A DNA stretch of 64,000 nucleotides from Alphaproteobacteria bacterium (lineage in GTDB: Bacteria; Pseudomonadota; Alphaproteobacteria; Rs-D84), in contig JAGCVZ010000013.1 of NCBI GenBank assembly GCA_017962125.1, forward strand, positions 18,509-82,508, written 5' to 3'. A model generated the notes under the pieces. It searched no databases and was not told where the DNA came from. It saw only the letters and a program-made list of their open reading frames with translations. Below are positions 900 through 54,649 of the stretch, piece by piece (position 1 is the stretch's first letter; each line of letters starts with the position of its first letter). The position numbers and the translations under genes are program-made.

Positions 900-1364
900 A
901 TGGCAAGAATTGATTATCAATCTTTGTTAGATAACGCGTTAAAATCCGTTGTGCGCGAAGCATTGATTCATGCACAGATAAACGGCCTTGGGGACGGGAT
1001 GCATTTTTTTATAACTTTTCGCACGCATGATGCGGGGGTTGTGTTGCCGGATTTCCTGCGTATACGGTATCCCGACATTATGACGATTGTGTTGCAGTAT
1101 TCGTATAATAACCTGCATGTGTCGGACAAAGAATTCGGTGTTCAGTTGACATTTGATGGACGGCCGTTCTTTATTCGCGTTCCCTTTTCGGCATTGGTTG
1201 AATTCAAAGACCCGTCTGTTGATTTTATGCTGTCTTTCCACAAAGGGCCCGAACGCAACGCACCGGATAACGATATTGAATTGCCATTAGACGGCACCGG
1301 TGACACAATTCCCGACGACGGCCGCGTTGTGTCGTTAGATGAGTTTCGGAAGAGGAAAAAGTAA
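900..1364 (+). CDS. sspB: ClpXP adaptor SspB (stringent starvation protein B family)
   Basis: 154 aa. The conserved SspB core is present (GMHFFITFRT, VVLPDFLRIRYPDIMTIVLQ, PFSALVEFKDPSV) and the C-terminal tail is basic. Confidence 0.8.
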   Translation: MARIDYQSLLDNALKSVVREALIHAQINGLGDGMHFFITFRTHDAGVVLPDFLRIRYPDIMTIVLQYSYNNLHVSDKEFGVQLTFDGRPFFIRVPFSALVEFKDPSVDFMLSFHKGPERNAPDNDIELPLDGTGDTIPDDGRVVSLDEFRKRKK

Positions 1365-1366
1365 GA

Positions 1367-1394
1367 GATAGTGGTTAGTGTAAGTGGTTAGTGT
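1367..1394 (+). repeat. Genome-specific short repeat (TAGTGGTTAGTGTAAGTGGTTAGTG) immediately after the sspB stop
   Basis: Seen in sequence. The same motif recurs at 2483-2508, 3190-3215 (reverse complement), 6848-6858, 15533-15546, 16848-16875, 35527-35584 (as a palindrome) and 60218-60229. Confidence 0.7.
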
Positions 1395-1449
1395 CACCCA
1401 TGAATGCGGTCGGTTTTATTAGATTTTCAATACTTATAAATTTTACAAC

Positions 1450-1477
1450 CTTGCGTTTAATGCGTTTTTTGGTATAA
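1450..1477 (+). promoter_or_regulatory. Extended -10 sigma70-like promoter for cassette gene 1504..2163
   Basis: TTGCGT at 1450-1455, a 16-nt spacer, then TGgTATAAT at 1469-1477. An AAAAAGGA Shine-Dalgarno lies 7 nt before the ATG. Confidence 0.5.
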
Positions 1478-1503
1478 TTGCAATCAGAAAAAAGGATTTA
1501 TCT

Positions 1504-2163
1504 ATGTACAATTTTATTGGTAAAAACGGTGACAGTTTTGAAGCTTATTGGGTAATACACGGCCATCCGCGTGGCGAAGAAGACAATACCGACAGAACAG
1601 ACCCGCCTGTATTTCGTCAATATCTATCTAAATTTCATACTCCAGAAAGCACTTTAGATTATACAACCCCCGGTGAAACATTCATAAAAAAAGAAGTACC
1701 TGGTCTTACTGGTGGTTTTGCATATACATTTGCTCGTACTGGAATATATGGGAATCAGGGCGACAGACCAGGGACTAATTATGGTGCAGTAACAGTTATT
1801 ATGGACGATATGGATGAAAAAAGCACTGAACAATTCGAAAATGATTTAAAGGAATGGTTTATCGTCAATATATTAAACAAATTTACTTATAAACACCCAG
1901 GTAAAGTTGGATGGCGCAAATGGGACATGAATGCCGATAAGTTATTCAATGGCGCTTATGACGAAAAATTAAAAAATTCTATAGAATCTGTCATAAAACC
2001 GTATTTGGAAATAACCGCTTTGAAATCTGGCAACACAAAGGATATTGATAAGTACAAAGTAGCAACTGAAAGACTGCAAGCCGAAATAGAAAGATTAGAA
2101 CAACAAAGAGACGATCTCAATCGACAGATTGCCGAAAAACGCCGAGAATTAGCAAACATGTAA
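1504..2163 (+). CDS. Hypothetical cassette protein with a coiled-coil C-terminus, inserted downstream of sspB
   Basis: 219 aa ORF with its own promoter and RBS. No family recognised. The C-terminus is heptad-like (ERLQAEIERLEQQRDDLNRQIAEKRREL). Diverged copies of the sspB 3' end bracket it. Confidence 0.6.
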   Translation: MYNFIGKNGDSFEAYWVIHGHPRGEEDNTDRTDPPVFRQYLSKFHTPESTLDYTTPGETFIKKEVPGLTGGFAYTFARTGIYGNQGDRPGTNYGAVTVIMDDMDEKSTEQFENDLKEWFIVNILNKFTYKHPGKVGWRKWDMNADKLFNGAYDEKLKNSIESVIKPYLEITALKSGNTKDIDKYKVATERLQAEIERLEQQRDDLNRQIAEKRRELANM

Positions 2164-2338
2164 ATTTTTTATGATTTAGAGTGGTTTGTTTATTTTTTAT
2201 ATTATGATAAGAGCATGTTAAAACTTTTTTAAATACGCGAAATCGTTCTGGTTTCACAATCGTCTCATTTTATACAAAAATCGTATCATTTTTTGAGACG
2301 ATTTATGCCTGCGTCATAGTACAAACCGGCGCAATGCG

Positions 2339-2440
2339 CCGGACAACGATATAGAATTACCACTGGATGGCACCGGTGACACAATTCCCGACGACGGCCG
2401 CGTTGTGTCGTTAGATGAGTTTAGGAAAAGAAAGAAATAG
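2339..2440 (+). repeat. Second, diverged copy of the sspB 3' end (last 33 codons plus stop); att-like duplication
   Basis: Aligns with 1264-1364 and encodes the identical peptide DNDIELPLDGTGDTIPDDGRVVSLDEFRKRKK. About 13 substitutions separate the copies, all synonymous, and TAA becomes TAG. A CCGGCGCAATGCGCCGG hairpin (2326-2342) abuts the left edge. Confidence 0.85.
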
Positions 2441-2604
2441 TGGGTAGTCCGTCACGACCGCGGCGCGGTGTGCCGCGACGGGTGTTAGTGGCTAGTGTAA
2501 GTGGTTAGTGCCGCCCGCATTTGCGGGCGGTTTTTATAGTTTTTTAACTGCTTGTATTTAATACATATTTTGATATAATTCTGGAAAAGACAACGGAGAC
2601 AAAG

Positions 2605-3123
2605 ATGAAAGATGGTGAGGCTGGTGTTGTAGTATTTGGTGTTCCGTGCGGATTTGACACATCCAACTGTCCACCAGAGATACGAGATTTTTTACAGGGG
2701 TTTTATGTGCCGCATACTACGGGGACAGAGATACAAGTTATTCGCAGGAATGACAATAGTATGCATTATGTTTTCTTGGTATACGAAACAAATTCAGACG
2801 TGGGTTTTGTTGATGCAAATGGTCGTAGTGGTTCTTTTTTCGGGATAGACGTTATGTTTAAAAATCGATACCTGCCGAACACAGAAAAGTTAAAGAAATT
2901 ATTTGATTTAACCTATGAACGTTACGTAAAAGACCAAATCATACAAGAATCACCTAATGGGCTAAGGAAACATATGTTTTCGCGGTTTTGGTTTGAAGAC
3001 AATAGAATAGCAAACCATGTATCAAATGGTATGAACAAGTTGGTAAAAGAACATCCTGAATTGAATATTTTCCAAGACGTTCGACCATTACCACCATTAC
3101 AAAATAACAGACAACGGGTTTAA
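2605..3123 (+). CDS. Hypothetical cassette protein
   Basis: 172 aa ORF. TTGTAT-N16-TGaTATAAT promoter at 2552-2580. No family recognised. Confidence 0.55.
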   Translation: MKDGEAGVVVFGVPCGFDTSNCPPEIRDFLQGFYVPHTTGTEIQVIRRNDNSMHYVFLVYETNSDVGFVDANGRSGSFFGIDVMFKNRYLPNTEKLKKLFDLTYERYVKDQIIQESPNGLRKHMFSRFWFEDNRIANHVSNGMNKLVKEHPELNIFQDVRPLPPLQNNRQRV

Positions 3124-3217
3124 AAATCCCAAAACGATGATATCGCCTTTCTTTATTTGAATTAACGAATAAAACCGGCGCAGTGCGCCGGTTTCACTAA
3201 TCACTAACACTTACCAC

Positions 3218-4576
3218 TTATTTCTTTTTATGTTCTTTTTTTAGATATTCTTCCAACCAATGGTTATCAAAATTCAATGTTCTAACATCGCGGTTGTTCA
3301 GAAGTTTCTTTTGCAACGGGATTGTTGTTTTTACGCCTTCGATAACAAATTCGTCCAGTGCACGTTCCGCACGCATAATACATGCAGACCGCGTTTGCGC
3401 ATGCACGATAAGTTTTGCAATCATTGAATCGTATGTTGGTGGAATTGTGTATCCAGTGTAAACCGCACTGTCCACACGCACGCCAAGTCCGCCCGACGGT
3501 GCGTAAAGTGTGATTTTACCGGGGCAGGGCACAAAAGTTTCCGGGTCTTCGGCATTGATGCGAAATTCAATCGCGTGACCATGCGGAATCACGTTCGCCT
3601 GGGTATAGCCAAGTTTTTCGCCCGCCGCAACACGGATTTGTTCGCGCACCAAATCAACACCATAAACCATTTCTGTTACTGGGTGTTCAACCTGTAAGCG
3701 AGTGTTCATTTCCAAGAAATAGAATTTGCCGTCTTCGTACATAAATTCAAATGTTCCGGCGTTGGTATAGCCCATTTTCTTTGCCGCCGTTTTGCAGATT
3801 TCAATCATATCGTCGCGCTGTTTCTGTGTAAGCGCAGCGGCGGGGCATTCCTCCATAACTTTCTGATTCTTGCGTTGCAACGAACAATCGCGTTCGCCAA
3901 ATATAACAACATTGCCGTGTTTGTCGCCCAAGACCTGAAATTCAATATGCCGCGGGTGCAATAATAATTTTTCCATATAAAGCGTGTCATCGCCGAAACC
4001 ACTGCGTGCCTCGTTCTTGGTAATTTCGAACGCCTCACCCATTTCATCCGCAGACATAACAGGGCGCATTCCGCGACCACCACCACCAGCCGCTGCCTTT
4101 AACATAACCGGATATCCGATTTTTTTTGCCCATTTTAGTGCGTCTTCGACCGTATCGACCGCACCATCAGACCCCGGAACAACCGGCAATCCGCATTCAA
4201 TCGCGGTTTTCTTGGCATTTACTTTGTCACCCATTTTATTTATCATCGCCGCGTCCGGCCCAATCCAGATTAAACCATGTTGTTCAACCTTTTGCACAAA
4301 GTCCGCGCGTTCAGACAAAAAACCGTATCCTGGGTGAATCGCATCTGCATTAGTAAGCAACGCCGCCGTCAATATCGCGGATTCGTTAAGGTAAGATTCC
4401 TTGGACACCCCAGGGCCAATACACACAGACTCGTCCGCCAGTTGCACATGCATTGCATCGCGGTCCACGGTAGAATACACCGCAACCGTTCGAATACCCA
4501 TATCGCGGCACGCGCGAATTATTCGCAACGCAATTTCGCCACGATTGGCAATTAAAACTTTCTTTATCTTTGGCAT
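3218..4576 (-). CDS. accC: Acetyl-CoA carboxylase biotin carboxylase subunit
   Basis: 452 aa. ATP-grasp biotin carboxylase hallmarks (KVLIANRGEIA, GGGGRGMR, EMNTRLQVEHPVTE). Confidence 0.95.
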   Translation of the reverse strand: MPKIKKVLIANRGEIALRIIRACRDMGIRTVAVYSTVDRDAMHVQLADESVCIGPGVSKESYLNESAILTAALLTNADAIHPGYGFLSERADFVQKVEQHGLIWIGPDAAMINKMGDKVNAKKTAIECGLPVVPGSDGAVDTVEDALKWAKKIGYPVMLKAAAGGGGRGMRPVMSADEMGEAFEITKNEARSGFGDDTLYMEKLLLHPRHIEFQVLGDKHGNVVIFGERDCSLQRKNQKVMEECPAAALTQKQRDDMIEICKTAAKKMGYTNAGTFEFMYEDGKFYFLEMNTRLQVEHPVTEMVYGVDLVREQIRVAAGEKLGYTQANVIPHGHAIEFRINAEDPETFVPCPGKITLYAPSGGLGVRVDSAVYTGYTIPPTYDSMIAKLIVHAQTRSACIMRAERALDEFVIEGVKTTIPLQKKLLNNRDVRTLNFDNHWLEEYLKKEHKKK

Positions 4577-7172: not shown

Positions 7173-8819
7173 ATGGGCAAAAAATATCTTATTACTTCGG
7201 CATTACCATATATAAATGGTGAATTACATATTGGTCATTTGGTTGGTTGTTGGTTACCATCTGATGTATACGCACGGTTTTGTCGCGCAATAGGGCGTGA
7301 TGTTTTGTATATTGGTGGTGCGGATGAACATGGAACACCGGCACTTGTTGGTGCCATGAAGGAAAAAATGCCCGTTTTAGAATATACTAACAAATATTAT
7401 GAAAAACATTTGCGTGCAGTATCTGATTTTAATTTATCATTTGATTTATATGGACGGACACATACAGAATTACAAGAAAAATTAATTCATGATTTATTCA
7501 CACGTCTTGACGAACAGGGCTTAATTGAAGAACGCGAAACAGTGCAGCCTTTTTCTGTGGATGATGATATGTTTTTGGCAGACAGACAACTTGAAGGAAC
7601 TTGTCCAAAATGTGGTTATGAAAAAGCACGTGGCGACCAATGTGATAATTGCAGCGCAACATATGAAGCATCCGAATTACTAAATCCACGTTCTGTAATT
7701 TCAGGATCAACAAATATTGAAATGCGTAAAACAAAAAATTTATTTTTCCTTGCTTCTAAGATAGAAGATGTTTGGCGTAAATGGTTGCCACAACATGCAC
7801 CCAAATGGTCCAAAACGGCGTCTTCTATTGCAATGGGCTGGGCAAACGAAGGATTGCGCGATACAAGTATTACGCGCGATTTGAAATGGGGGATTCCGGT
7901 AAATAAGCCGGGATATGAAAACAAAGTTTTCTATGTGTGGTTTGATGCGCCGTGGGGCTATGTTTCAATTTCGCAAGCTGCGAGAAAAGATTGGGATTCT
8001 TGGTGGAAAAATCCAGATTGTTTTTATGCGCAATTTATGGGCAAAGATAATGTAAAATTTCATTCTGTGTTTTTTCCTGAACAACAATTGGCGATGAACG
8101 ATAATTGGAAAACAGTAGATTTATTAAAAGCCGTTAACTTTCTAAACGCTGGAGGAAGTAAAGTTGCAAAGTCAAGTGGAAACGGAATTTTCTTAGATAA
8201 AGCCCTAGATATCGCACCAAGTGATTGCTGGCGTTATGCCTTATTAGCATCTGAACCGGAAAGTGACGATACGGACTTTACAATGACGCGGTTTGCGGAA
8301 ATTGTGAACAAAGATTTGAACGGGTTGCTGGGGAACTTTGTATCACGCGTATGCAAACTGTCACAGAAAAATTTTGGTGACACTGTGCCGGCGGCGGGTT
8401 TGGCGGATAATGAATTGGCGGACAAAGTCAACGCAAAGATTGCCGAACTAACCGATGCACTCGATGCGTGCGAATTTAGGAAGTCTATTGTTGCGCTGCG
8501 TGATATTTACGGAATTGCAAATGAATATATGACTGCAAAAGAACCTTGGGCACTTGTTAAAAACGGCGATATGGCGGGTGCAGCGGCGGTTTTGTATGAG
8601 TGTTTTCAACTTATTGATTTGTTTGCGCGCATATCGGCACCAATTATTCCGGACACGGCGGAAAAAATTCAAAATATATTTGCCGGCAAGCACGATTTGT
8701 CTTGGCCGACAAAGTATGAACATCGTATCGACACGGGCGAAAAATTTACTGTGCCGGAAAATTTATTTAGTCGGATTGAGTTAGAAACAAACACAAACGG
8801 CGCATTAACTGGGGTTTGA
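7173..8819 (+). CDS. metG: Methionyl-tRNA synthetase
   Basis: Class I HIGH motif (HIGHLVG), CxxC zinc knuckles and the MetRS anticodon-binding region. ATG at 7173 follows AAAGGA. The ORF track uses an upstream TTG at 7140. Confidence 0.9.
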   Translation: MGKKYLITSALPYINGELHIGHLVGCWLPSDVYARFCRAIGRDVLYIGGADEHGTPALVGAMKEKMPVLEYTNKYYEKHLRAVSDFNLSFDLYGRTHTELQEKLIHDLFTRLDEQGLIEERETVQPFSVDDDMFLADRQLEGTCPKCGYEKARGDQCDNCSATYEASELLNPRSVISGSTNIEMRKTKNLFFLASKIEDVWRKWLPQHAPKWSKTASSIAMGWANEGLRDTSITRDLKWGIPVNKPGYENKVFYVWFDAPWGYVSISQAARKDWDSWWKNPDCFYAQFMGKDNVKFHSVFFPEQQLAMNDNWKTVDLLKAVNFLNAGGSKVAKSSGNGIFLDKALDIAPSDCWRYALLASEPESDDTDFTMTRFAEIVNKDLNGLLGNFVSRVCKLSQKNFGDTVPAAGLADNELADKVNAKIAELTDALDACEFRKSIVALRDIYGIANEYMTAKEPWALVKNGDMAGAAAVLYECFQLIDLFARISAPIIPDTAEKIQNIFAGKHDLSWPTKYEHRIDTGEKFTVPENLFSRIELETNTNGALTGV

Positions 8820-8921: not shown

Positions 8922-9248
8922 ATGTCGCAAAATTTTAAGAGCTCAGAATATACAGTTATATCCAATACAGATGTTCCAAACAAAAAACGTGTTGCGGTGT
9001 TTAATAATTCTGAAAAAAAAGAACTGATGGATTATATAATAGGTGAAATTTACCTTAGCGATATGTACAGTATTGATACACTTCCAATAACATTGGTAAA
9101 AGAAACAACAATAAAAAATTTTCATACACGTATCGGCGGATTCGTAAATCAGCACCAAACAAGAACTAAGAAAATAAACATTTATTTTTACAACAATGCA
9201 GTTTGTGAATTTATAAACGGTTCATCAACAAAATTAAAGACTCGTTAA
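8922..9248 (+). CDS. Hypothetical protein
   Basis: 108 aa ORF at the head of the paralog array. No recognisable domain. Confidence 0.4.
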   Translation: MSQNFKSSEYTVISNTDVPNKKRVAVFNNSEKKELMDYIIGEIYLSDMYSIDTLPITLVKETTIKNFHTRIGGFVNQHQTRTKKINIYFYNNAVCEFINGSSTKLKTR

Positions 9249-9267
9249 TACCAAAGGAGTTAACAGA

Positions 9268-9825
9268 ATGAAACTTAAAAGTGTTGTTCAGTTTTATATG
9301 GATGATTATTTGGGTCGACAACAAATCACAGGGATTGACGATATCAAAAAAGTTATTGCAGAAAATTTAGAACAAAATGGTGTAATACCTTATAAAGTAG
9401 AGATTATAAGGAAGGTCTGTATTATTGATTTAGATAAATCAATCAGTGATGTAGGGGCACCATATGTATGGTCACCATATAGACCGGTAGAGTCCATTGA
9501 CGAACATCCAGTGGAGGTGTCACTGTTTGGAGGACGGTTTAATTTTATATGTCCTTGCATCATGTATCAAAAAGATATGATAAAATATTTAATGGAAACA
9601 CATTTGTTACAATCAACACCAAATTTTAAACCAATAACCCCAGACCAGCAGAATCTACCCATTTGTTTTGATATTGGTGCTACATATACTATATGGAGTT
9701 TTTTAGATAAAAATACAAATGTGATTCTTGATAAAAACCTGAATCAAATTTGGCCGACAAAAACAAATAAACCACCAGTTGGTCTGGTCGAATTAATGAA
9801 TAAAACAACCGAAAAGGTGTATTAA
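9268..9825 (+). CDS. Paralog family member 1 (conserved C-terminal NLNQIWPTKTNKPPVGLVELMNKTTEKVY)
   Basis: 185 aa with an AAGGAG RBS. Shares a core motif (IYPxDVxxYL...NFKP) and the C-terminal box with the next three ORFs. Confidence 0.6.
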   Translation: MKLKSVVQFYMDDYLGRQQITGIDDIKKVIAENLEQNGVIPYKVEIIRKVCIIDLDKSISDVGAPYVWSPYRPVESIDEHPVEVSLFGGRFNFICPCIMYQKDMIKYLMETHLLQSTPNFKPITPDQQNLPICFDIGATYTIWSFLDKNTNVILDKNLNQIWPTKTNKPPVGLVELMNKTTEKVY

Positions 9826-9826
9826 A

Positions 9827-10294
9827 ATGGAAACAACTAAAATTTATCTGTATCACACGGGACCGTGCACACAGTGCCACAATGGTCCATTTAAACAAAT
9901 TTCTTCGTTTGACGATTTGTTAAAATATACGCGCGGATATCCTTTGCATATGAATATACCGTATACACTTCGGCTGAAACGTATGGTGGACACAAAGGTC
10001 ACGGACGAATACACTATTTTGGTTGGTGATAGATTGATTTATCCAAATGACGTTGCAACATTTTTAAATGACCAATACAGAAAAACATTTAACTTTGATG
10101 CAAACAGTGCGGAAAACAAGCCTGTTATGTTGGACGGTGTTCCGGGACATTGTTTTGTCCGTTGGCATTATTTGACCGATAGTGATGTTTTTATAGAAAG
10201 GGAAACATTGAATCAGATATGGCCGGTTAAAACAGGTAAACCGCCGGTCAGTTTGGTTGAATTGCTGAACAAAAAAACAGAAAAGGTATATTAA
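9827..10294 (+). CDS. Paralog family member 2
   Basis: 155 aa. The C-terminus (LNQIWPVKTGKPPVSLVELLNKKTEKVY) is near-identical to member 1. The start abuts the previous stop. Confidence 0.6.
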   Translation: METTKIYLYHTGPCTQCHNGPFKQISSFDDLLKYTRGYPLHMNIPYTLRLKRMVDTKVTDEYTILVGDRLIYPNDVATFLNDQYRKTFNFDANSAENKPVMLDGVPGHCFVRWHYLTDSDVFIERETLNQIWPVKTGKPPVSLVELLNKKTEKVY

Positions 10295-33925: not shown

Positions 33926-35535
33926 TGGCAAAATACGATAATAATTTTACTGACCAATTGCGCGAACGGCTTTCAATCGTTGATGTTGTGTCGCGGCGCG
34001 TGCCACTTGTTAAAAAGGGTCAAAATTATTGGGGTTGCTGTCCGTTTCATAATGAAAAAACTCCGTCTTTTTCCGTCAATGAAGACAAAGGTTTTTTCCA
34101 TTGTTTCGGTTGTGGAAAGCATGGCGATATTATCTCGTTCACTATGGAATCAGAACATATTGATTTCAAGACGGCTATTGCAGAACTTGCGGATATGGCT
34201 GGATTAAAGTTGCCGGAATATAAACCAAAATCACAGCAACAAATTGATGCCGAAGAATCTTATATTTCTATCACAACGTCGGCGGCAAAATTGTACGCAG
34301 AAAAATTATTCACACCTGATGGCGCACATGCTTTGGAATACATTCGCGGTCGCGGGTTTAGTGATGATATGATAAAAAAATACGGCATAGGATATGCGCC
34401 CAAAAATAACATTATTTCAAATAAATTTGTAAATGTGCATCAAGATAAACTTATTGCGACCGGCCTTACGCGGCGTGGCGAATATGGTATGTATGATTTT
34501 TTTCGTGATAAATTAATGTTTCCAATTTTTAATGCGCGCGGACAGATTGTTGCTTTTTCGGGGCGTTCACTCGATGGGTCGGAACCCAAATATATCAACA
34601 CGACCGATACAGAAATGTTTCACAAAAGACAAACTTTATTCGGTTTTAATTTTGCACGCGAAGCGATTCATCGTGCAAACCGCGCAATAATTGTCGAAGG
34701 ACAAATTGATGCGATTCAAATGCAATGCCATGGTTTTGGTGAAACTGTTGCACCATTGGGGACGGCACTTACCGAAGACCATATTGCGATTTTATGTAAA
34801 GCAAATAGAAATATCATTTTTTGCTTTGACGGTGATGGAGCAGGGCAAAAAGCCGCTGCACGTGCATGTAGTATAATCATGCCGTTCTTGCGCGATAATT
34901 CAGATGTGCGTTTTGCTTTTGTGACTGGTGGAAAAGACCCAGATGAAATCTTGCGCAAAGGTGATTCTGGTGATATGAAAAAAATTATTGATTCTGCAAT
35001 TTCACTAGTTGACTTTCTGTGGAATATCGTAAATAAAAACTTTTTAACAAACACACCATCAGGAAGGACACAAGCAGAAAAATTTTTAAAAAAAGAACTT
35101 GAAAAAATAACCGATAAATTATTACGCGCAGAATATGAACATGAATATGAATCACGCAAATTTAATAATTGGCATAAATGGAAAAAAAACTCAGAAATCG
35201 TGCGTATAGATGTTCCAGAAATTGATACTATTGTTAAAAATACTGTTATTTCGATTATAAATAAATATCCGACACTTGCCGAACGGTATGGTGATTTTAT
35301 TAGTAAATTTAATCTCAATTTTTCAGAAAAAGTTGCGGATTGTGGATTGTCTTTTGATGCAGCAGAAAAATATTTAGTATCATTAAAATTGCAAAAATAT
35401 ATAGAAAGTTTGGAAAAACAAAAACGTGATTTGACTGTGCGTGGGCTTTCTGGTGAAAACGATGTAAGCGAAGAAATCCGCCGTATAGATGATGAATTGA
35501 ATAAAATGAGAGAGAAGTTTGAATTGTTAGTGTAA
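33925..35535 (+). CDS. dnaG: DNA primase
   Basis: Zinc finger CCPFHNEKTPSFSV...CFGCGKHGD plus Toprim domain. Confidence 0.9.
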   Translation: MAKYDNNFTDQLRERLSIVDVVSRRVPLVKKGQNYWGCCPFHNEKTPSFSVNEDKGFFHCFGCGKHGDIISFTMESEHIDFKTAIAELADMAGLKLPEYKPKSQQQIDAEESYISITTSAAKLYAEKLFTPDGAHALEYIRGRGFSDDMIKKYGIGYAPKNNIISNKFVNVHQDKLIATGLTRRGEYGMYDFFRDKLMFPIFNARGQIVAFSGRSLDGSEPKYINTTDTEMFHKRQTLFGFNFAREAIHRANRAIIVEGQIDAIQMQCHGFGETVAPLGTALTEDHIAILCKANRNIIFCFDGDGAGQKAAARACSIIMPFLRDNSDVRFAFVTGGKDPDEILRKGDSGDMKKIIDSAISLVDFLWNIVNKNFLTNTPSGRTQAEKFLKKELEKITDKLLRAEYEHEYESRKFNNWHKWKKNSEIVRIDVPEIDTIVKNTVISIINKYPTLAERYGDFISKFNLNFSEKVADCGLSFDAAEKYLVSLKLQKYIESLEKQKRDLTVRGLSGENDVSEEIRRIDDELNKMREKFELLV

Positions 35536-35584
35536 GTGGGTGATGACCGCGGACGGGCTGTCGCCCACTACCCACTTACACTAA
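35527..35584. repeat. Perfect 15-bp inverted repeat (TTAGTGTAAGTGGGT / ACCCACTTACACTAA) around a GC-rich 28-nt core; convergent terminator built from the genome-specific repeat
   Basis: Lies between the dnaG stop and the stop of the minus-strand gene 35581..36213. Confidence 0.7.
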
Positions 35585-36214: not shown

Positions 36215-38632
36215 TTATATATCACCTGCACCTTGTTTACGCAGGTATTCCGCAACAAACGATGAACCATATTGGCGATAAAGTTCTTCTGCAAGTAATA
36301 CAGATGAACGACCAGATTCAAATAATTTAAGTAAACTGCCTAATCCACCAAGTTCAGTATTTAAAATTACCGATTCATTATTTACAGGTCTTGATAATAA
36401 TACTGCACGTTTAAGGCTTGGATACGCTTTTCCTTGGATAAATGCCATTTCTAGCGGATTTAAATTCCAATGCTCGTAATCCGCCGCATCCGCCGCAGGA
36501 TTACGGAAAAACATAACTGTTTGTGCCTGGCCACGAACAACATCACCGATACCAAGTTTATCTAATACATTTGCACGTTGAAACGCAACCATATAAGCCT
36601 GACGATTTTTACGACCTTCTTGGAGTCCAGTAATAAAATTATCACGGAACATCTTATTTTCAAGCATTGGTGCAGTTTCATCAATCATAATAAGTGACGG
36701 ATTTCCCCCAGATACAGTTGTGTTATTTATTCGATGTAATATATAAGATATAACAGCAGGTGCAAGAGTAGAATCTTGTAAAATTTCAGTAAAATCAAAA
36801 GTCGTAAGGCGTGATTGTAAATCAAGAGTATCTGTTTCTTCATTAAATATTTCGCCGTATTGCAACGGATCAACCCACTTTTTTAATGCAGCGCGCATTT
36901 TACCATTTGATGAAAAACAACTTTCCCATAAATTTTTTAACATTCTGTCTTTATCAGATAAATAATCAAAATTTACAGATACAGCACGTGCAATTTCATC
37001 ATCAGAAATTGGATCTGATTGTTCAGAAATCATTGAAAACCAACGACGTAAAAACGCACGATTACCAACAGTATCAGGCATTTTTAAAGGGTTAAGATGC
37101 GCAAGAAAATTTGTTTCATTTTTCTCTTTACCTTGCATAGTTATATACTTCCCACCAGTTGCAAGTGTGAATATTTCAGCACCTTTATTCCTATCAAAAA
37201 AGAATGCTTTTAATTTTTTGTGACGCATTGACTGTGCAATAAGAAAAGAGAACAATGTTGTTTTACCACCACCAGTTGGTCCTATGGTAAGTGTGTGCCC
37301 CACAGCGGCAGTTTTATCTGATACATGAAATTGAAATTGATATGGTGTACCTTGGGCGGTTGGAAATATAACAAGTGGCCCGGGTCCCCAATCTGAATTA
37401 GATATTCCGCGTGGTGCCGAAGACATAGGAACTGTAATTGCCGCCGCACGTGATAACATTTTAAAAGTCCGTGGAAAAGTGTCAAAACCGGGTACGGTAG
37501 AAAACCAAGACACTTTACTAGCAAAATTTTCTTGGATTGGGGAAACACCGAATGATGCAGATATTTTTTTAAATTCATCAACATATTCTTTTAAATCTTG
37601 TTCTGATTTTGCAAAAATCATAAACAAAGGATAATAATTTACCAATGTTTGATTTCCAGAAACATTTTCATCCATAGACGATTCAGCAGTTGAAATTTGT
37701 TCTTCGGTTGAATCATTTTCTTTGGATGCAACACTGCGCCGTTGGCGCAAAACCGCTTCAACATCAGCCGCACCCATTATTTTAAAACCGTTCATACAAA
37801 TCATTTCTGTTTGAATAGTATTTACAGAATCAAAAAAATCTTCATCAAGATAATCAGGCGCAGAACGAAACGATATTAATGATGCAAAATATTCATTATT
37901 ACCACTTATATATTTAACTGTACCATTTGATAAAAATTCAACATCATCAACAGTGATATTTTCTGTAATTTTATCATCACATATCGCAGGTGATGGTTTT
38001 GTAATAGGAGAAAATATACGTCCAAAAAATTTCGCCATGTTGTTACGCGATTTATTTTCCAGTACTTGCGGTTTATATGGTGCAAGTATAGATTCAATAT
38101 AATTTCCATATTGATTTAATTTATCGCGTGCATGCGCGCCACGAACTGATAATACTATGTAATAATTATTTAAAAATATCTTTAATCCTTGTGAATGCCA
38201 TTTGTCATATATTTTCTGTAATACAGGTTGATCAAACTCATAATCTGTATTTTCACCAACTGCATCGCGCACAGTAAAAAAACGCAAAACAACACTTGGG
38301 TCATGAATCTGATTAAATAATTGTGCACGCAAATCAAGAAATTTTTCACGTTGTTCATCGGTTTGCATACTGGTTTGAACACCGGCTAAAGAATAAACAC
38401 GTATCAAACACCCATCATTTAATTCAATAGAATTATCAGTATAAACAGTTGTAAATGGTATATATTCAGCATAATGCTTATAACCAAATTTTGGAAAAAC
38501 ATGTTTTACTATTGTCGGAATATACATTAACAAAATAATAAATACAAATATAACAGCCATAACCATAATAGTTAAAGTTATAGTATTTGAAAATCCATTA
38601 CCGGCAAAATATTTAAAAAATTCAGGTATCAT
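36215..38632 (-). CDS. virB4: Type IV secretion system ATPase VirB4 (N-terminal membrane segment)
   Basis: 805 aa. Walker A IGPTGGGKTTL and CagE/TrbE/VirB4 domain organisation. TM helices are present in the first 50 aa. Confidence 0.85.
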   Translation of the reverse strand: MIPEFFKYFAGNGFSNTITLTIMVMAVIFVFIILLMYIPTIVKHVFPKFGYKHYAEYIPFTTVYTDNSIELNDGCLIRVYSLAGVQTSMQTDEQREKFLDLRAQLFNQIHDPSVVLRFFTVRDAVGENTDYEFDQPVLQKIYDKWHSQGLKIFLNNYYIVLSVRGAHARDKLNQYGNYIESILAPYKPQVLENKSRNNMAKFFGRIFSPITKPSPAICDDKITENITVDDVEFLSNGTVKYISGNNEYFASLISFRSAPDYLDEDFFDSVNTIQTEMICMNGFKIMGAADVEAVLRQRRSVASKENDSTEEQISTAESSMDENVSGNQTLVNYYPLFMIFAKSEQDLKEYVDEFKKISASFGVSPIQENFASKVSWFSTVPGFDTFPRTFKMLSRAAAITVPMSSAPRGISNSDWGPGPLVIFPTAQGTPYQFQFHVSDKTAAVGHTLTIGPTGGGKTTLFSFLIAQSMRHKKLKAFFFDRNKGAEIFTLATGGKYITMQGKEKNETNFLAHLNPLKMPDTVGNRAFLRRWFSMISEQSDPISDDEIARAVSVNFDYLSDKDRMLKNLWESCFSSNGKMRAALKKWVDPLQYGEIFNEETDTLDLQSRLTTFDFTEILQDSTLAPAVISYILHRINNTTVSGGNPSLIMIDETAPMLENKMFRDNFITGLQEGRKNRQAYMVAFQRANVLDKLGIGDVVRGQAQTVMFFRNPAADAADYEHWNLNPLEMAFIQGKAYPSLKRAVLLSRPVNNESVILNTELGGLGSLLKLFESGRSSVLLAEELYRQYGSSFVAEYLRKQGAGDI

Positions 38633-38991
38633 GCGGCCAGTCTCCGTGGAATTCTATCTTTTATCATTCTTATTTTTGCAATTAAAATTTGACCAAGTTG
38701 AGGATCGCGTCGCGAATAATGTGCTAATAACATATGAACCAAGCATACTGATATTATAAAAAATAAAGGATTTAAATAATCATTTACTTTATCACCAAGA
38801 ATAAATATACCTGCGACATACAAAATAATAAAAATAAAGAACTGAATCATAAAATTCAGCACCGCTAAAGTGTACGGCACAAAAAATAAATGTGACGGAT
38901 TCGCCAAAGCTTTTAGCACTTGTTGCTTCATTTTATGTAACATCCCCCCTATGGATGTTTTTATTATAACAATTTCAACATTTTTCAACAA
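38629..38991 (-). CDS. virB3: Type IV secretion system protein VirB3
   Basis: Small protein with a LKALANPSHLFFVPYTLAVLNF box and a TM hairpin. Overlaps virB4 by 4 nt. The true start may be the internal MLHKMKQQ. Confidence 0.6.
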   Translation of the reverse strand: MLKNVEIVIIKTSIGGMLHKMKQQVLKALANPSHLFFVPYTLAVLNFMIQFFIFIILYVAGIFILGDKVNDYLNPLFFIISVCLVHMLLAHYSRRDPQLGQILIAKIRMIKDRIPRRLAA

Positions 38992-51080: not shown

Positions 51081-52349
51081 TTGTCCGGTCAGTATATTTA
51101 TATAAAAAGGAGAAAATATGCATCGGGATTGGTATGGCAACCGATGGTGGCTGGATTTACGACACGTGCATATGCGCAAAAATTATCAAATGGAATTGAC
51201 AAGCGTTTAAACCTTTATGTTCGTTATAACAGTATGGTTGGTTTGGGCGCTCGTGCCAAAGGGCATAGGTCTGGGATGCCTTCGATTGCCATAGAAATTA
51301 TAAATGCGTTACCTGGGTATGCTTCGCTTTTAGCCGCGTTCCAAATAGCGGATAAGTTCGTGTTAATCGCGGTTAGAAACGGTGTTATTTTACAAGATTT
51401 GTTGTTTGATAATGAACAGGCGGCGCGTGAAAAATATGCTGAATTAAACGAAATTCCTGATTGGAATGCAACATTTGCACCAGCGGCATGGGGAATTCCC
51501 CGGGCTGTTGATCGTAATTTGTTGGAATTGATACCTGGGCGTGTTCATGCTGTTTTACATCCGATTAGTAGATTTGCTTCTGGTATTATGTCTTTGGTCT
51601 TTATATCGGTTTTTGCGTTGTTATTTTTGTATTTTTTTCGTGAACCAATAAATCAAGTGTTTGCGCCTAAACCGCAAATATCAAAGATAAATCCTGAACT
51701 TGCGGCGGAATATAAAAGAAAAATTGAAGAAAAAAATAAAGAATTAGATGATAAATTTAACATACATCAAGAGCAGGTGCATGAACCAATAGTTTTCCCA
51801 TATGATTCTTTGCCTGATATATATGAACGGGCTGATTTATGTTATCGTGCGATTGGTTTTTTGATGCAACCTGTTACTGGTTGGAATCAATCTGTTGTTG
51901 AATGTGATAAAACACATGTGAATGCTACATTTAAACGTTCATTTGGGACTTTGGATGATTTTTATGTTATTGTTGGTGAAATTATGCCCGGTGTTTTTGT
52001 TCAAGAAATTACGGACGATGAGATTTTTGTTCGTGCAAAATTGCCTGAACGTTTGGTGTATGAATCTTATGATTTGCGTGATGTTGATACTATTGTTCGC
52101 GAAATGACAAGTCGTTTTCAATCTATAAACATTGATGCGAATATAGTACCTTTGATTGATGTTGTGTCTAATGGTGTAGAATCTGTGGATATATATTTTA
52201 TTGGGATTACGGTTAAAACAAAACTTATTCCGGAACAGGTTATGAAAATTTTTGAAGATTTTGGCGGTGTTTATATGACAAAGGTGTCATGGAATACAAA
52301 TGAAAAAACTTGGAACTATGAGGTGGTAATCTATGCAAAACAAAATTAA
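51081..52349 (+). CDS. Hypothetical membrane-anchored protein of the pilus-assembly cluster (PilO-like position)
   Basis: 422 aa with one central TM segment. Probable TTG start after GGAGAGAGA. An out-of-frame 31-codon ORF with a strong AAGGAG RBS begins at 51117. Confidence 0.45.
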   Translation: MSGQYIYIKRRKYASGLVWQPMVAGFTTRAYAQKLSNGIDKRLNLYVRYNSMVGLGARAKGHRSGMPSIAIEIINALPGYASLLAAFQIADKFVLIAVRNGVILQDLLFDNEQAAREKYAELNEIPDWNATFAPAAWGIPRAVDRNLLELIPGRVHAVLHPISRFASGIMSLVFISVFALLFLYFFREPINQVFAPKPQISKINPELAAEYKRKIEEKNKELDDKFNIHQEQVHEPIVFPYDSLPDIYERADLCYRAIGFLMQPVTGWNQSVVECDKTHVNATFKRSFGTLDDFYVIVGEIMPGVFVQEITDDEIFVRAKLPERLVYESYDLRDVDTIVREMTSRFQSINIDANIVPLIDVVSNGVESVDIYFIGITVKTKLIPEQVMKIFEDFGGVYMTKVSWNTNEKTWNYEVVIYAKQN

Positions 52350-53022
52350 AATGTTATTTGGTTTAACTTTGTTCGCGATAACTTTTGGGTGTTATGCCGA
52401 AGAAGTAATTGTTGATGCGAATGTTGATGATATAACGGCAAACGAGCAGTTTTCTGCGGATGCGGTTGAAGAATACAATATAGATGGGTCTTTGTTTCAA
52501 CAAATTACTGATTTAGAGCAAGAAAAAGTTCTTATGCAACTGGAAAAAGAACGCGCGCAGTTGAATCTTGATTTGGATAGATTGGCCGCAGAAAAAATAA
52601 AGTTGCATATGGAGATTGATACTTTGTCTGGGCGTGCAGAACAACAGCAACAGGAATTTGAGACAGAACGTGCGCGCTTACAAAATGAAGCAAAGCGGTT
52701 AGAAAACGAACGCGAAGCATTGACAAATCGCGCAGCAACTTCTGTGTCAGCATATTCGGCTCCGATTCAGCAACAATATGTGGAACAAACACAGTCTAAA
52801 CCTGTCGCAGAGATATCAAAACAGTATAAACTTATAAATGTGTTCGGTGCAGGTGGACAATTACAGGCGACGGTTCAAGATTTATCAAATGGCCAAAATA
52901 AAAAGTTGAGTGTTGGTAAAACGTTAGATGGCTACACCGTTAAATCAATATCTTTGGATGAAGGTGTCGTGTTTTCAAAAGATGGAGAAATTCAAACACT
53001 GAATGTTACAAATGGCAATTAA
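52333..53022 (+). CDS. PilP-like periplasmic protein (signal peptide, coiled coil, C-terminal beta domain)
   Basis: 229 aa with a signal peptide, a Q/E-rich coiled coil and a C-terminal beta-rich segment. Assignment rests on context and architecture. Confidence 0.4.
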   Translation: MQNKIKMLFGLTLFAITFGCYAEEVIVDANVDDITANEQFSADAVEEYNIDGSLFQQITDLEQEKVLMQLEKERAQLNLDLDRLAAEKIKLHMEIDTLSGRAEQQQQEFETERARLQNEAKRLENEREALTNRAATSVSAYSAPIQQQYVEQTQSKPVAEISKQYKLINVFGAGGQLQATVQDLSNGQNKKLSVGKTLDGYTVKSISLDEGVVFSKDGEIQTLNVTNGN

Positions 53023-53024
53023 AA

Positions 53025-54647
53025 ATGAAGGGTTTTTCAGACAATATCGTTTTTGATAAAAAGCCGACCATACCTGTCGGGGTTGAACGTTTGGATACTG
53101 ACGATATTGTTGAATATTTGTTTTCAGAAAACAATCGATTACTTACGGCAAATGGTGCAGAATTTGAATTGCCAAAAGAAACCCAGAGTTTGTTAGCGTA
53201 TTTTTCTGGGGGTGGATTAATTATATCTCGGACGCATCGTTATGATGGACGTGTATTGGCTTTTTTAGATTTGTTGCGCAAGAAAAATTTGCCGATGCTT
53301 TCACCTTTTTATTCTGATTTGGGTTTATTGTCCGCGGTGTATAAGTATTACGAAAGTAAACTTGGTGGACCACGCACGCGTGTCGATTACAACAATCAGA
53401 TGCAAAAAGATTTTATAGATATTGTTGCAAAGGCTGCTGCACAAAAAGTTTCTGATATTCATATAGAGGTTGCAGACCAAACAACAATATATTTTCGTAT
53501 AGATGGCAGTATGCAACCAGTTTTGGAATTTAATTCTGGGTGGGGTGAATCTTTTGTACGTGCTGCATTTGCATCAGCGGATATTTCAAATTCAAATTAT
53601 GCGCAAAACGAATATCAATCTGCGCAAAAAGATGGTCGGACACCTTTGCGTGGAACAAAAGATTTATATTTGCCCGAAGGTGTGCTTAGTATCCGTATGC
53701 AATTTAATCCTGTTGCATTTGGGTCACGTTATGTGGTTATGCGATTGTTGTATGATAACCCATCAGAGAGTATTACGATCGAGCAAGAATTTGGAAAATA
53801 TGAACAAAAACTTTTACGCAGACTTCGTTCTTTCCCAACGGGATTGGTTGTGGTTGCCGGTCCAACGAGTTCTGGTAAATCAACAACGCTTGTCCGTAAT
53901 ATGGTTTTAATGCTAAAAGAGCATCATTACGAAATAAACCTTATTACAGTTGAAGATCCTGTTGAACAGAAAATTTTTGGTGCTCATCAGATTCCTGTTA
54001 TAAATACCGCCAATGAAGAACAGCGTGAAAACGAATATACCGAAGCGTTGGCGGCTGCGTTACGCAGTGACCCTGACACATTGATGGTTGGTGAAATTCG
54101 AACTCTGGCGGCGGCACAACTTACGGTTAAAGGCGCATTATCAGGACACAATGTTTGGACTACATTACACGCGAATTCTGCGATGGCGGCTTTGGTGCGG
54201 TTGCTTGATATGGGGGTTGAAGCATTCAAGTTAAAAGAAGAAACTATGATGCGTGGTCTTATTTCTATGCGGTTGTTTAAACGTCTTTGCCCACATTGTC
54301 GCGAAAGGTTAATGCATCATCCAGAACGTTCGGAATATGACAGGGTTGTTGAGGCTTTTGGAGATTTGGGTTTAAATCAAGTTTATATTCGTGGTGCAGG
54401 TTGTGAACATTGTAATGGAACCGGGACTATGGGGCGTATCAAGGCTGGTGAAGTTATTATAACAAATAGTGATTTCTTAAAACTCGCACTTGCCGGTGAT
54501 ACAGATGCGGCAGTGAAATACTGGTTGGAAGAAATGGATGGGCGTACTTTAAAAGAAGCAGCGTGTTCATTGATGTTACAAGGTATTATTGGTGTTGATG
54601 AATTAGAACGTTGGGTTGGATTATTGGATAGACCTGGGGTTTATTAA
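53025..54647 (+). CDS. GspE/PilB-family secretion ATPase (type IVb pilus PilQ/BfpD-like)
   Basis: Walker A GPTSSGKSTT, Asp box, His box TLHAN and a tetracysteine motif (CPHC...CEHCNGTG). Confidence 0.8.
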   Translation: MKGFSDNIVFDKKPTIPVGVERLDTDDIVEYLFSENNRLLTANGAEFELPKETQSLLAYFSGGGLIISRTHRYDGRVLAFLDLLRKKNLPMLSPFYSDLGLLSAVYKYYESKLGGPRTRVDYNNQMQKDFIDIVAKAAAQKVSDIHIEVADQTTIYFRIDGSMQPVLEFNSGWGESFVRAAFASADISNSNYAQNEYQSAQKDGRTPLRGTKDLYLPEGVLSIRMQFNPVAFGSRYVVMRLLYDNPSESITIEQEFGKYEQKLLRRLRSFPTGLVVVAGPTSSGKSTTLVRNMVLMLKEHHYEINLITVEDPVEQKIFGAHQIPVINTANEEQRENEYTEALAAALRSDPDTLMVGEIRTLAAAQLTVKGALSGHNVWTTLHANSAMAALVRLLDMGVEAFKLKEETMMRGLISMRLFKRLCPHCRERLMHHPERSEYDRVVEAFGDLGLNQVYIRGAGCEHCNGTGTMGRIKAGEVIITNSDFLKLALAGDTDAAVKYWLEEMDGRTLKEAACSLMLQGIIGVDELERWVGLLDRPGVY

Positions 54648-54649
54648 AA

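Follow-up and report, generated by a model that had tools for sequence, protein, structure and literature searches.

Two small gene cassettes stand in tandem between sspB and accC in Candidatus Enterousia, an uncultured gut alphaproteobacterium with a reduced genome (~0.9 Mb), and a second copy of the sspB 3′ end lies between them. We consider it probable (roughly 0.8) that the cassettes were stacked by an illegitimate joint at a short homology together with homologous recombination between two alleles of the locus, with no dedicated recombinase involved. The mechanism is ordinary and is well documented by this locus, which offers a clean natural example in that samples exist of each parent, of the unoccupied site and of the product.

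The duplicated sspB 3′ end

We analyzed a window of 64,000 nucleotides, in which the interval between sspB and the convergent accC contains the features listed in Table 1; the layout of the two cassette genes and accC was as given in a preliminary description of this DNA. The sspB 3′ end is present twice, once within the intact gene (copy A) and once between the cassettes (copy B), each copy comprising 36 codons and a stop and specifying the same peptide (RNAPDNDIELPLDGTGDTIPDDGRVVSLDEFRKRKK). The preliminary description had located this repeat correctly but reported it as the last 33 codons plus stop (1264–1364 and 2339–2440), short of its in-frame extent. It had also counted about 13 mismatches, every one synonymous, with a TAA to TAG change at the stop; our alignment gave 14 mismatched bases, of which 13 lie in 12 codons and are all synonymous and the last is that stop codon change. 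Comparison of the aligned tails yielded dN = 0 and pS = 0.53, and when 13 substitutions were placed at random 200,000 times the peptide was never preserved. Exclusively synonymous differences mean that each tail goes back to a functional sspB, the two genes belonging to different lineages; for copy B, a functional donor homologue had already been proposed. Consistent with this origin, the same tail peptide is encoded by 18 nucleotide alleles, whose mean pairwise difference of 12.9 nt compares with 13 between copies A and B. Copy B is untranslated, as no in-frame start codon precedes it.

The duplication had been presented as one of the gene tail alone. The likeness of the two copies in fact goes on beyond the stop codon at ~79% identity (1369–1480 versus 2486–2580), across an array of the GTTAGTG type, then a terminator hairpin and a promoter, and includes on the copy B side a GC-rich insert of 35–41 nt; the 35-nt insert also occurs at other array sites in alleles L027, L005 and L013. 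The left edge of copy B sits at a hairpin, as previously noted (CCGGCGCAATGCGCCGG, 2326–2342), which is scored as a minus-strand terminator. We rejected the idea that this hairpin belongs to a dispersed repeat family, because within the window it occurs at this locus only. The promoter-like site of gene 1 is missing from the list of a consensus scan because its −35 element matches at 3 of 6 positions. The inverted repeat at 2257–2305 is a remnant of another cassette.

Table 1 Features of the sspB–accC slot (window coordinates)
Feature	Position	Strand	Remarks
sspB, 154 aa, intact	900..1364	+	Pfam SspB, E = 8e-27; identical protein on ≥20 contigs
Tail copy A, sspB codons 119–154 + stop TAA	1254..1364	+	Last 27 nt and everything downstream same as in the gene-1-only allele L178
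Heptamer/hexamer array TAGTGGTTAGTGTAAGTGGTTAGTG	1369..1393	+	Stops in all three frames; then degenerate hairpin and T-run, to ~1420
Gene 1 promoter-like site: TTGCGT, 16 nt, TGGTATAAT (extended −10)	1451..1478	+	Sequence reading; homologous to gene 2 promoter
Gene 1, 219 aa	1504..2163	+	Predicted longin/roadblock-like domain and C-terminal coiled coil
Inverted repeat AATCGTCTCA...TGAGACGATT	2257..2305	+	Homologous to the Fic gene's upstream promoter/operator region (alleles L002, L005)
Joint J, hairpin AAACCGGCGCAATGCGCCGG	2323..2342	.	Left arm from accC-side terminator of gene-1 allele; CGC onward = sspB codons 119–123
Tail copy B, untranslated second sspB codons 119–154 + stop TAG	2330..2440	+	From repeat comparison and tail search among loci
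GC-rich insert, 35 nt, breaking the array after copy B	2447..2481	+	Not in L001 or L196
Heptamer array (2486–2510) and intrinsic terminator GCCGCCCGCATTTGCGGGCGG, then T-run	2486..2541	+	
Gene 2 promoter-like site: TTGTAT, 16 nt, TGATATAAT	2552..2579	+	Sequence reading; conserved in L001 and L196
Gene 2, 172 aa	2605..3123	+	Predicted longin/roadblock-like fold
accC-side terminator hairpin (3172–3194) and inverted heptamer array starting at the accC stop codon	3172..3220	-	
accC (biotin carboxylase)	3218..4576	-	Convergent with sspB

The arrangement is real and inherited. The duplicated tail was recovered in six independent assemblies, made from different samples with different assemblers, four of them the same as the window and two slightly diverged. 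Unitigs built at k = 31 do break at a 54-nt core common to the two tails (L177 corresponds to window 1317–2398, and L184 and L185 begin at 2393), as might be seen if two co-occurring strains had been fused through common sequence during assembly. Against such a chimera, MEGAHIT (k = 141) and scaffold-type contigs span the region in six samples, two of them with SNPs of their own, and the homology at the joint, being only 13 nt, is too short for a k-mer join. The concern about an artefact raised in the preliminary description has thus been met by the six assemblies, and we regard a chimera as extremely unlikely.

The variable slot and its single-cassette alleles

The interval between sspB and accC varies among strains. 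It measures 7–46 nt in many relatives and elsewhere holds genes for Fic, HTH or hydrolase proteins or other small genes. Five alleles with an identical SspB protein (L007, L009, L011, L012 and L015) are empty, with a gap of 7 nt; in many species the gap consists of the hairpin alone (16–46 nt), and in others it contains 283–3,600 nt of varied cargo. The uninterrupted junction that the preliminary description had suggested looking for in this lineage therefore exists in relatives. Oliveira et al. reportedly described, in 2017, intervals flanked by conserved core genes that act as hotspots of horizontal transfer. The sspB–accC slot likewise has constant core-gene flanks, varying content and, among close relatives, both empty and variously filled states, with small accessory or toxin-antitoxin-like cargo turned over via flanking homology; we see no difference in kind, and sspB–accC belongs among these hotspots, here within a genome of <1 Mb.

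Each cassette of the window occurs singly in other lineages. Allele L178, represented by one contig of 2.1 kb, the only one known with gene 1 alone, has the order sspB–gene 1–accC and a single tail. It differs from window 1338–2320 at 5 positions per 1,000 nt, and its gene 1 is 99.5% identical, compared with ~92% identity (~8% divergence) for the flanking sspB. Alleles L001 and L196 have the order sspB–gene 2–accC, again with a single tail, and the L001 cassette is ~97% identical to that of the window, as against ~87% for the flanks. These values bear out the earlier proposal that the cassettes were acquired. The identity of the gene 1 cassette ends inside sspB, at ~1338, and not at a fixed site such as an integrative element would have led one to expect. 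Among ~195 loci searched by tblastn with the 36-aa tail, the second tail is confined to the window's lineage. In the flank phylogeny, the close relatives of the window's chromosome that have been sampled carry the same arrangement only.

These alleles also bear on whether an ancestral unit of tail, promoter and gene was duplicated in tandem within one genome, the two gene copies diverging afterwards. Such an origin would account for the inclusion of the array, terminator and promoter in the repeat and for the common predicted fold and weak profile similarity of the two proteins (hhalign E = 0.0012). The genes themselves, however, have no nucleotide similarity while their flanks are 79–86% identical, each cassette is found alone in other lineages at 97–99.5% identity (L178, L001 and L196), and the differences between the tails are of inter-lineage size and match the haplotypes of other lineages. 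Local duplication is therefore very unlikely.

The joint, the mosaic tails and the stacking of the cassettes

The new joint lies within 13 nt (CGCAATGCGCCGG) that are common to the accC-side terminator hairpin and to sspB codons 119–123, two otherwise unrelated sequences. Past the hairpin, L178 continues into the array and accC, whereas the window continues into sspB codon 119. The hairpin matches the allele's own sspB codons at 13 of 13 positions in L196 and at 11 of 13 in L178; L196 has the exact hairpin of the window beside accC as well as CGCAATGCGCCGG in its own sspB. We take the match to be a chance similarity.

The mismatches between copies A and B are distributed unevenly: 8 fall within the first 39 nt and 6 within the last 18 nt, leaving the intervening 54 nt free of any. 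Such a difference-free center was found in 1 of 120 pairs of tail alleles and in none of the 76 pairs differing at 12 or more positions (P ~2e-5). Given that the copies are overall as divergent as tails of different lineages, this identity shows that they have exchanged sequence. Their ends also have different affinities: the 3′ end of copy A is that of L178 (0 differences) and its 5′ end is closest to L001 and L007 (0–1), while the 5′ end of copy B is closest to L196 (1 difference, against 2 for L178) and its 3′ end differs from L001 at 2 positions. The homology flanking the cassettes is thus a mosaic of the crossover or conversion type, and both parental arrangements exist. L178 is not itself the donor, since its differences from the window are concentrated around the joint (5 in 47 nt). 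Copy B may be a displaced resident tail, or both copies may be chimeras.

From this pattern we infer the order of events and the enzymes involved. Lineages would exchange small cassettes at sspB–accC by homologous recombination in the conserved flanks, and the window's lineage has the gene 1 allele (as in L178) and the gene 2 allele (as in L001 and L196) in tandem. Stacking would require a single illegitimate joint, formed at CGCAATGCGCCGG, a sequence found both in sspB and in the accC-side terminator hairpin with which every cassette ends; the remaining step would be homologous recombination within the 111-nt sspB tail. The outcome would be a full-length sspB that has copy A as its end, plus copy B as a spare that stays silent. 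Descent from functional sspB genes in separate lineages, together with a recent event, would explain why the tails show synonymous differences only, and the identical central 54 nt would represent the crossover or a conversion tract.

Two routes can be envisaged. In one, a 1,076-bp unit consisting of tail, gene 1 and joint would have arisen in a gene 1 lineage, either in circular form or as a piece of a tandemly duplicated stretch, and would have been inserted by a crossover inside the tail of a gene 2 chromosome, making the two copies reciprocal chimeras. In the other, an incoming gene 1 allele with its own tail A would have been joined at the 13-mer ahead of the resident tail B, and the middle of the tails would have been homogenized later by conversion. 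Both fit about equally well; they are not separable because L178, which carries gene 1, and L196, which carries gene 2, both have the B-type 5′ haplotype. We discarded single-step homology-facilitated illegitimate recombination (HFIR) of a linear gene 1 fragment with its left crossover in the tail, which predicts the same 5′ part in both copies, whereas A and B differ there at 8 of 39 nt. We also withdrew an argument for a circular intermediate that relied on the nearness of the copy B 5′ end to L178, as the gene 2 allele L196 is nearer still. The window includes PilB/PilC-like genes as well as VirB3/VirB4, which are no more than suggestive with regard to DNA uptake.

We also weighed a dedicated capture system, in which the inverted stop-rich heptamer arrays and hairpins would serve as recognition sites and the duplicated tail would be a by-product. 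Every occupied allele does lie between inverted arrays, one starting at each stop codon; L021, which has no cargo, forms an almost perfect palindrome of 90 nt; and other lineages have other heptamers at the same site. Yet arrays also follow many genes without variable cargo, the breakpoint of gene 1 identity lies in sspB rather than at an array, and no candidate enzyme was found, so we judge such a system quite unlikely. It is likewise doubtful, at little better odds, that the sspB–accC palindrome is an integrase-free capture site for which the 1,076-bp unit would be a circular intermediate, targeting the slot through its own gene end. The heptamer was considered as an uptake-signal-like motif and rejected, its density being too low (~4 sites in 64 kb).

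Integrative elements and other known systems

The preliminary description explained the repeat by an integrative element whose attP reconstitutes the end of the target gene. On this account, a gene 1 element carrying a copy of the sspB tail would have been put into sspB by a site-specific recombinase encoded elsewhere. Its premises stood up: the tails derive from functional genes of different lineages, the cassettes were acquired, and the empty junction exists. Moreover, sspB is restored in frame, the repeats show a reciprocal-chimera pattern whose identical 54-nt center resembles the common core of attL and attR, and an integrase using the tail as attP would yield an identical reciprocal chimera with the same core. 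The element itself did not. The 1,076-bp repeat unit encodes gene 1 alone, without a Pfam match, and no recombinase family appeared in the Pfam annotations of window 1–11.4 kb and 26–64 kb or among extra ORFs at 8.9–11.4 kb, 15.6–18.7 kb and 21.8–23.3 kb; a recombinase may be encoded in the remainder of the window (~11.4–15.5 kb and parts of 18.7–26 kb) or elsewhere in the ~0.9-Mb genome. L178 has the same cassette in the slot, ending at the normal accC terminator without a second tail, and L001, L196 and all other occupied alleles among the ~195 loci also have one tail. The outer limit of the supposed attP is the 13-nt chance match to the terminator, and searches with the cassettes found no relatives on viral contigs, phages or plasmids. 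We therefore consider this explanation unlikely. An integron fits no better, as the array lies between sspB and accC with no integrase in the parts of the window checked (rather than beside intI and attI), both genes, unlike promoterless cassettes, have their own promoter-like sites of the TGnTATAAT type, and the breakpoint at ~1338 in sspB stands in place of a fixed core.

Some prophages, such as phage 21 and e14 in icd of E. coli, and islands in tRNA genes integrate at a gene's 3′ end, which they replace with one of their own. In these systems the integrase gene adjoins attP, and attL and attR are present in every lysogen. The Enterousia locus resembles them in its duplicated target gene end, silent differences and intact gene, but its unit has no integrase and its single-cassette alleles have no repeat. 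Thus, a gene-end duplication with silent differences only is not in itself evidence of an integrase-type element. The locus shows how accessory cassettes can become stacked with no machinery of a mobile element, through a short homology arisen by chance and recombination within the conserved end of a gene, and that this extends to a genome of <1 Mb.

Closer parallels are HFIR and Campbell-type insertion-duplication by a single crossover, known in transformable bacteria (PMC3240628; de Vries and Wackernagel 2002 and Prudhomme et al. 2002, both cited in PMC5361080). There, too, a conserved segment pairs by homology, a single joint forms where the match is very short, and the foreign DNA ends up beside the anchor, between direct repeats of the segment that paired. 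Classical cases combine insertion with deletion, whereas the Enterousia slot shows no loss and a duplication of 111 nt; the Enterousia event, in addition, is deduced from natural alleles. Sequential displacement at T6SS effector-immunity loci and in Rhs/CDI orphan modules (PMC5361080) is similar in that the incoming module uses the conserved 3′ portion of the upstream gene as its point of entry and pushes the older one downstream, leaving orphaned 3′ fragments and stacked cassettes without an integrase. Those systems vary the C-terminus of the upstream gene and the immunity gene, while the Enterousia tail specifies the same peptide in both copies and variation is confined to a distinct gene that has a promoter of its own.

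The Enterousia cassettes give no sign of a toxin or immunity function. Pfam, PADLOC, sequence and profile searches gave no named function for gene 1 or gene 2, and fold searches returned only the generic longin/roadblock fold. An Rfam search of the window found tRNAs only, and a lookup of a 1,019-aa ORF gave no record.

Heptamer arrays anchored at stop codons, noticed in passing, are a feature of the whole lineage. They recall the TAACTGA heptamer direct repeats in intergenic regions of Beggiatoaceae, cyanobacteria and Bacteroidetes (PMC4679880), being likewise short, tandem, intergenic, stop-codon-containing arrays of a lineage-specific motif. TAACTGA arrays lie mostly just upstream of start codons, whereas the (N)NAGTG arrays of Enterousia begin at stop codons, precede terminators and often form inverted pairs. 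They seem to be previously undescribed and may merit separate study.

The duplicated end of sspB

The intact sspB gene, which matches the Pfam SspB family, is followed by a second copy of its last 36 codons plus stop, and two small genes lie between it and accC (see table). The two tails, copy A at the end of the intact gene and copy B as the repeat, encode an identical peptide. They differ at 14 bases: 13 of these are spread across 12 codons, each being synonymous, and the other converts the stop codon from TAA to TAG. When 13 substitutions were placed at random on the tail, the peptide was kept in none of 200,000 simulated placements. The preliminary description of a gene end present twice with only silent differences was thus borne out, as were its gene 1 (219 aa), gene 2 (172 aa) and convergent accC. 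Copy B, which lacks an in-frame start, is a silent relic. Likeness between the copies extends 3′ of the stop (1369-1480 versus 2486-2580, ~79%) over a stretch comprising a GTTAGTG-type array, a terminator hairpin and an extended -10 promoter.

Features of the sspB-accC region and positions of (N)NAGTG arrays
Feature	Position	Strand	Remark
sspB	900-1364	+	intact
Tail copy B	2330-2440		repeat of last 36 codons + stop of sspB
Gene 1	1504-2163
Gene 2	2605-3123
accC	3218-4576		convergent with sspB
(N)NAGTG arrays, window	1369-1393, 2486-2510, 3194-3220, 16851-16864, 35528-35583
(N)NAGTG arrays, other loci	L002:15845, L017:10114, L023:11931		examples of many

The order sspB, 219-aa gene, 172-aa gene, accC is present in six assemblies from differing samples and assemblers; four equal the window exactly and two carry their own SNPs, which excludes an assembly chimera. 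An ENA scaffold (XIEF21-1_SAMN15830194 scaffold_516) shows one mismatch to the window over 11 kb. The host is Candidatus Enterousia (order Rs-D84, Alphaproteobacteria), gut and rumen bacteria with genomes below ~1 Mb (PMC12306168). The Logan unitigs L177 (window 1317-2398), L184 and L185 (starting at 2393) end exactly 30 nt inside a 54-nt core identical between A and B, showing that the repeat fragments k = 31 assemblies.

A strain-variable slot between sspB and accC

Comparison of contigs encoding an identical SspB and 160 more loci from genomes and metagenomes established that the sspB-accC gap is a strain-variable slot. Uninterrupted junctions were found among relatives: the stops are 7 nt apart in five loci, and in many species the gap is 16-46 nt and contains a bidirectional terminator hairpin alone. 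In one locus, L021, the hairpin is flanked by two inverted heptamer arrays in a gap of 77 nt. The remaining slots measure 283-3,600 nt, and their cargo varies: secreted proteins, an alpha/beta hydrolase, Fic with a small gene, an HTH protein, or the 172-aa gene by itself. When the 36-aa tail served as a tblastn query, a second tail copy came up in the window's own lineage only. In the cargo-free slot of L021 (6455-6550), the inverted arrays together with the shared hairpin make up a near-perfect palindrome of 90 nt (-44 kcal/mol, z = -16.6) that extends into the last codons of both sspB and accC; such palindromes may make the site break-prone.

Three relatives carry a single cassette. L178 (Logan SRR16020794) reads sspB, gene 1, accC; it differs from the window at ~5 sites per 1,000 nt from 1338 to ~2320, its sspB is ~8% diverged, and 3′ of the hairpin it has the usual inverted array and then accC. 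L001 and L196 read sspB, gene 2, accC; the L001 cassette is ~97% identical to that of the window and its flanks ~87%, and the gene-2 variant of L196 is more distant. None of the three has the tail repeat. Each cassette therefore occurs singly in the same slot without the repeat, and has moved between lineages via recombination in the flanks. At the ~0.5% that separates the gene-1 cassette from L178, 111 nt should have gained fewer than one new mutation, and we ascribe the synonymous-only pattern to a recent origin.

Elsewhere, the 5′ part of metG (~7400-8400) is 97-99% identical to L001, versus 80-87% for the surrounding genes, which suggests a recent import by recombination between species-level lineages. 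Five small ORFs without Pfam matches lie 3′ of metG (8922-11387), their number and content varying by strain (L001-L010). The region 3′ of mreB in L004 and L010 contains an integrase-like gene, resolvases, an EcoRI-type methylase and GmrSD.

Mosaic tails and the recombination proposed

Among eighteen nucleotide alleles encoding the identical tail peptide, the mean pairwise difference was 12.9 nt, as against 13 in the coding part of A and B; the copies have therefore diverged like tails of different lineages. Their central 54 nt contain no differences. An identical centre was seen in 1 of 120 allele pairs and never among the 76 that have at least 12 differences, and for 13 differences over 37 variable sites the probability of no central difference is P = 2e-5, which shows that A and B have exchanged sequence. 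The 3′ end of A equals that of L178, and its 5′ end is nearest to L007 and L001 (0-1 differences). For B, the 5′ end is nearest to L196 (1 difference) and L178 (2), and the 3′ end to L001 and L027 (2 differences).

The hairpin at 2326-2342, oriented as a minus-strand terminator, once formed the terminator on the accC side of the gene-1 allele. Its bases from CGC on are those of sspB codons 119-123, the common stretch being CGCAATGCGCCGG. L196 has the exact hairpin beside accC and the exact 13-mer in its own sspB, so that natural genomes do contain a perfect direct repeat of 13 nt. In L178, 11 of the 13 positions agree. We rejected the idea that the hairpin belongs to a dispersed repeat family, as within the window it is present at this locus alone.

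We propose that a gene-1 allele and a gene-2 allele were combined by one illegitimate joint, within the 13-nt chance homology, together with homologous recombination inside the 111-nt tail. The data suit two routes about equally. In a gene-1 lineage, the 13-mer repeats could have given rise to a tandem duplication or to a circle of 1,076 bp (tail, gene 1 and joint); a fragment or circle would then have recombined with a chromosome carrying gene 2, inside its sspB tail, leaving reciprocal chimeras whose core is a copy of the recipient's. Alternatively, a gene-1 allele could have arrived together with its tail and been joined, through the 13-mer, in front of the tail already in place, with later conversion homogenising the core. 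The B-type 5′ haplotype, being common to L178 and L196, fits either route. A single-step event with a homologous crossover inside the tail is ruled out, since the first 39 nt hold 8 differences between A and B.

The preliminary description had instead proposed an integrative element whose attP rebuilt the sspB end. Although attP x attB insertion by a site-specific recombinase would also give a reciprocal pattern with an identical core, the 1,076-bp unit encodes no recombinase, L178 carries the same cassette without an attR-like repeat, no other occupied allele among the compared loci repeats the tail, and on its outer side the A/B homology ends in a stretch that matches a terminator. We consider this origin very improbable. 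No recombinase was found in the parts of the 64-kb window that were checked (Pfam annotations of 1-11.4 kb and 26-64 kb, and extra ORFs at 8.9-11.4 kb, 15.6-18.7 kb and 21.8-23.3 kb), and searches of viral, phage and plasmid sequences returned no cassette relatives. The phage 21/e14-icd case resembles the sspB event in outcome only. The tail duplication is rather a case of already known recombination processes, matching homology-facilitated illegitimate recombination and insertion-duplication (PMC3240628) as well as the displacement model of T6SS immunity arrays and Rhs/CDI orphans (PMC5361080), in the setting of an ordinary transfer hotspot flanked by core genes. The reduced genome retains VirB3/VirB4 (type IV secretion) and PilB/PilC/PilO-like (type IV pilus/competence-like) genes (36215-38991, 51081-55720), possible routes for the DNA exchange proposed here.

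Cassette proteins and small repeated elements

The gene-1 and gene-2 proteins matched no Pfam or PADLOC family and have a predicted longin/roadblock-like fold. A gene-2 family profile retrieved 637 proteins, all unnamed, many of them ~600 aa long with the domain N-terminal, followed by coiled-coil and membrane segments; more distant relatives occupy other genomic sites. Both cassette promoters (1451-1478 and 2552-2579) have a near-palindrome overlapping the -35, TGCGTTTAATGCG in gene 1 and TGCATTTAATGCA in L001 and L196, which could be a shared operator. An inverted repeat 3′ of gene 1 (AATCGTCTCA...TGAGACGATT, 2257-2305) is homologous to sequence upstream of the Fic gene in L002 and L005, and likewise to part of the promoter region of L006; a piece of the control region of another cassette thus survives in the gene-1 cassette.

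The (N)NAGTG arrays, made of heptamers or hexamers such as GTTAGTG and TAAGTG, are a clade-wide element at gene 3′ ends. They start at the stop codons of sspB, accC, mreB, dnaG, der and others, usually with a terminator next. Of 50 distinct arrays, 31 begin at a stop codon that closes an open frame of 80 or more codons (random positions, 3%), and 32 provide stops in all three frames. Other lineages have other heptamers at the sspB-accC site, AGTTCAA (L086) and AGAGCAA (L126-L129). The closest described analogue, the TAACTGA repeat (PMC4679880), differs in position. A 35-nt GC-rich element, GTCCGTCACGACCGCGGCGCGGTGTGCCGCGACGG (2447-2481; also L027:6989-7014, L005:16033 and L013:12033), sits inside heptamer arrays, at genes that differ from one lineage to the next, and appears to be a very small mobile or copy-pasted element. 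A GC-rich inverted pair of ~75-85 nt, directly 3′ of both stops and outside the heptamer arrays, flanks the Fic and small-gene cassettes (L002:10466-10545 and 12140-12221; L005 and L008 alike).
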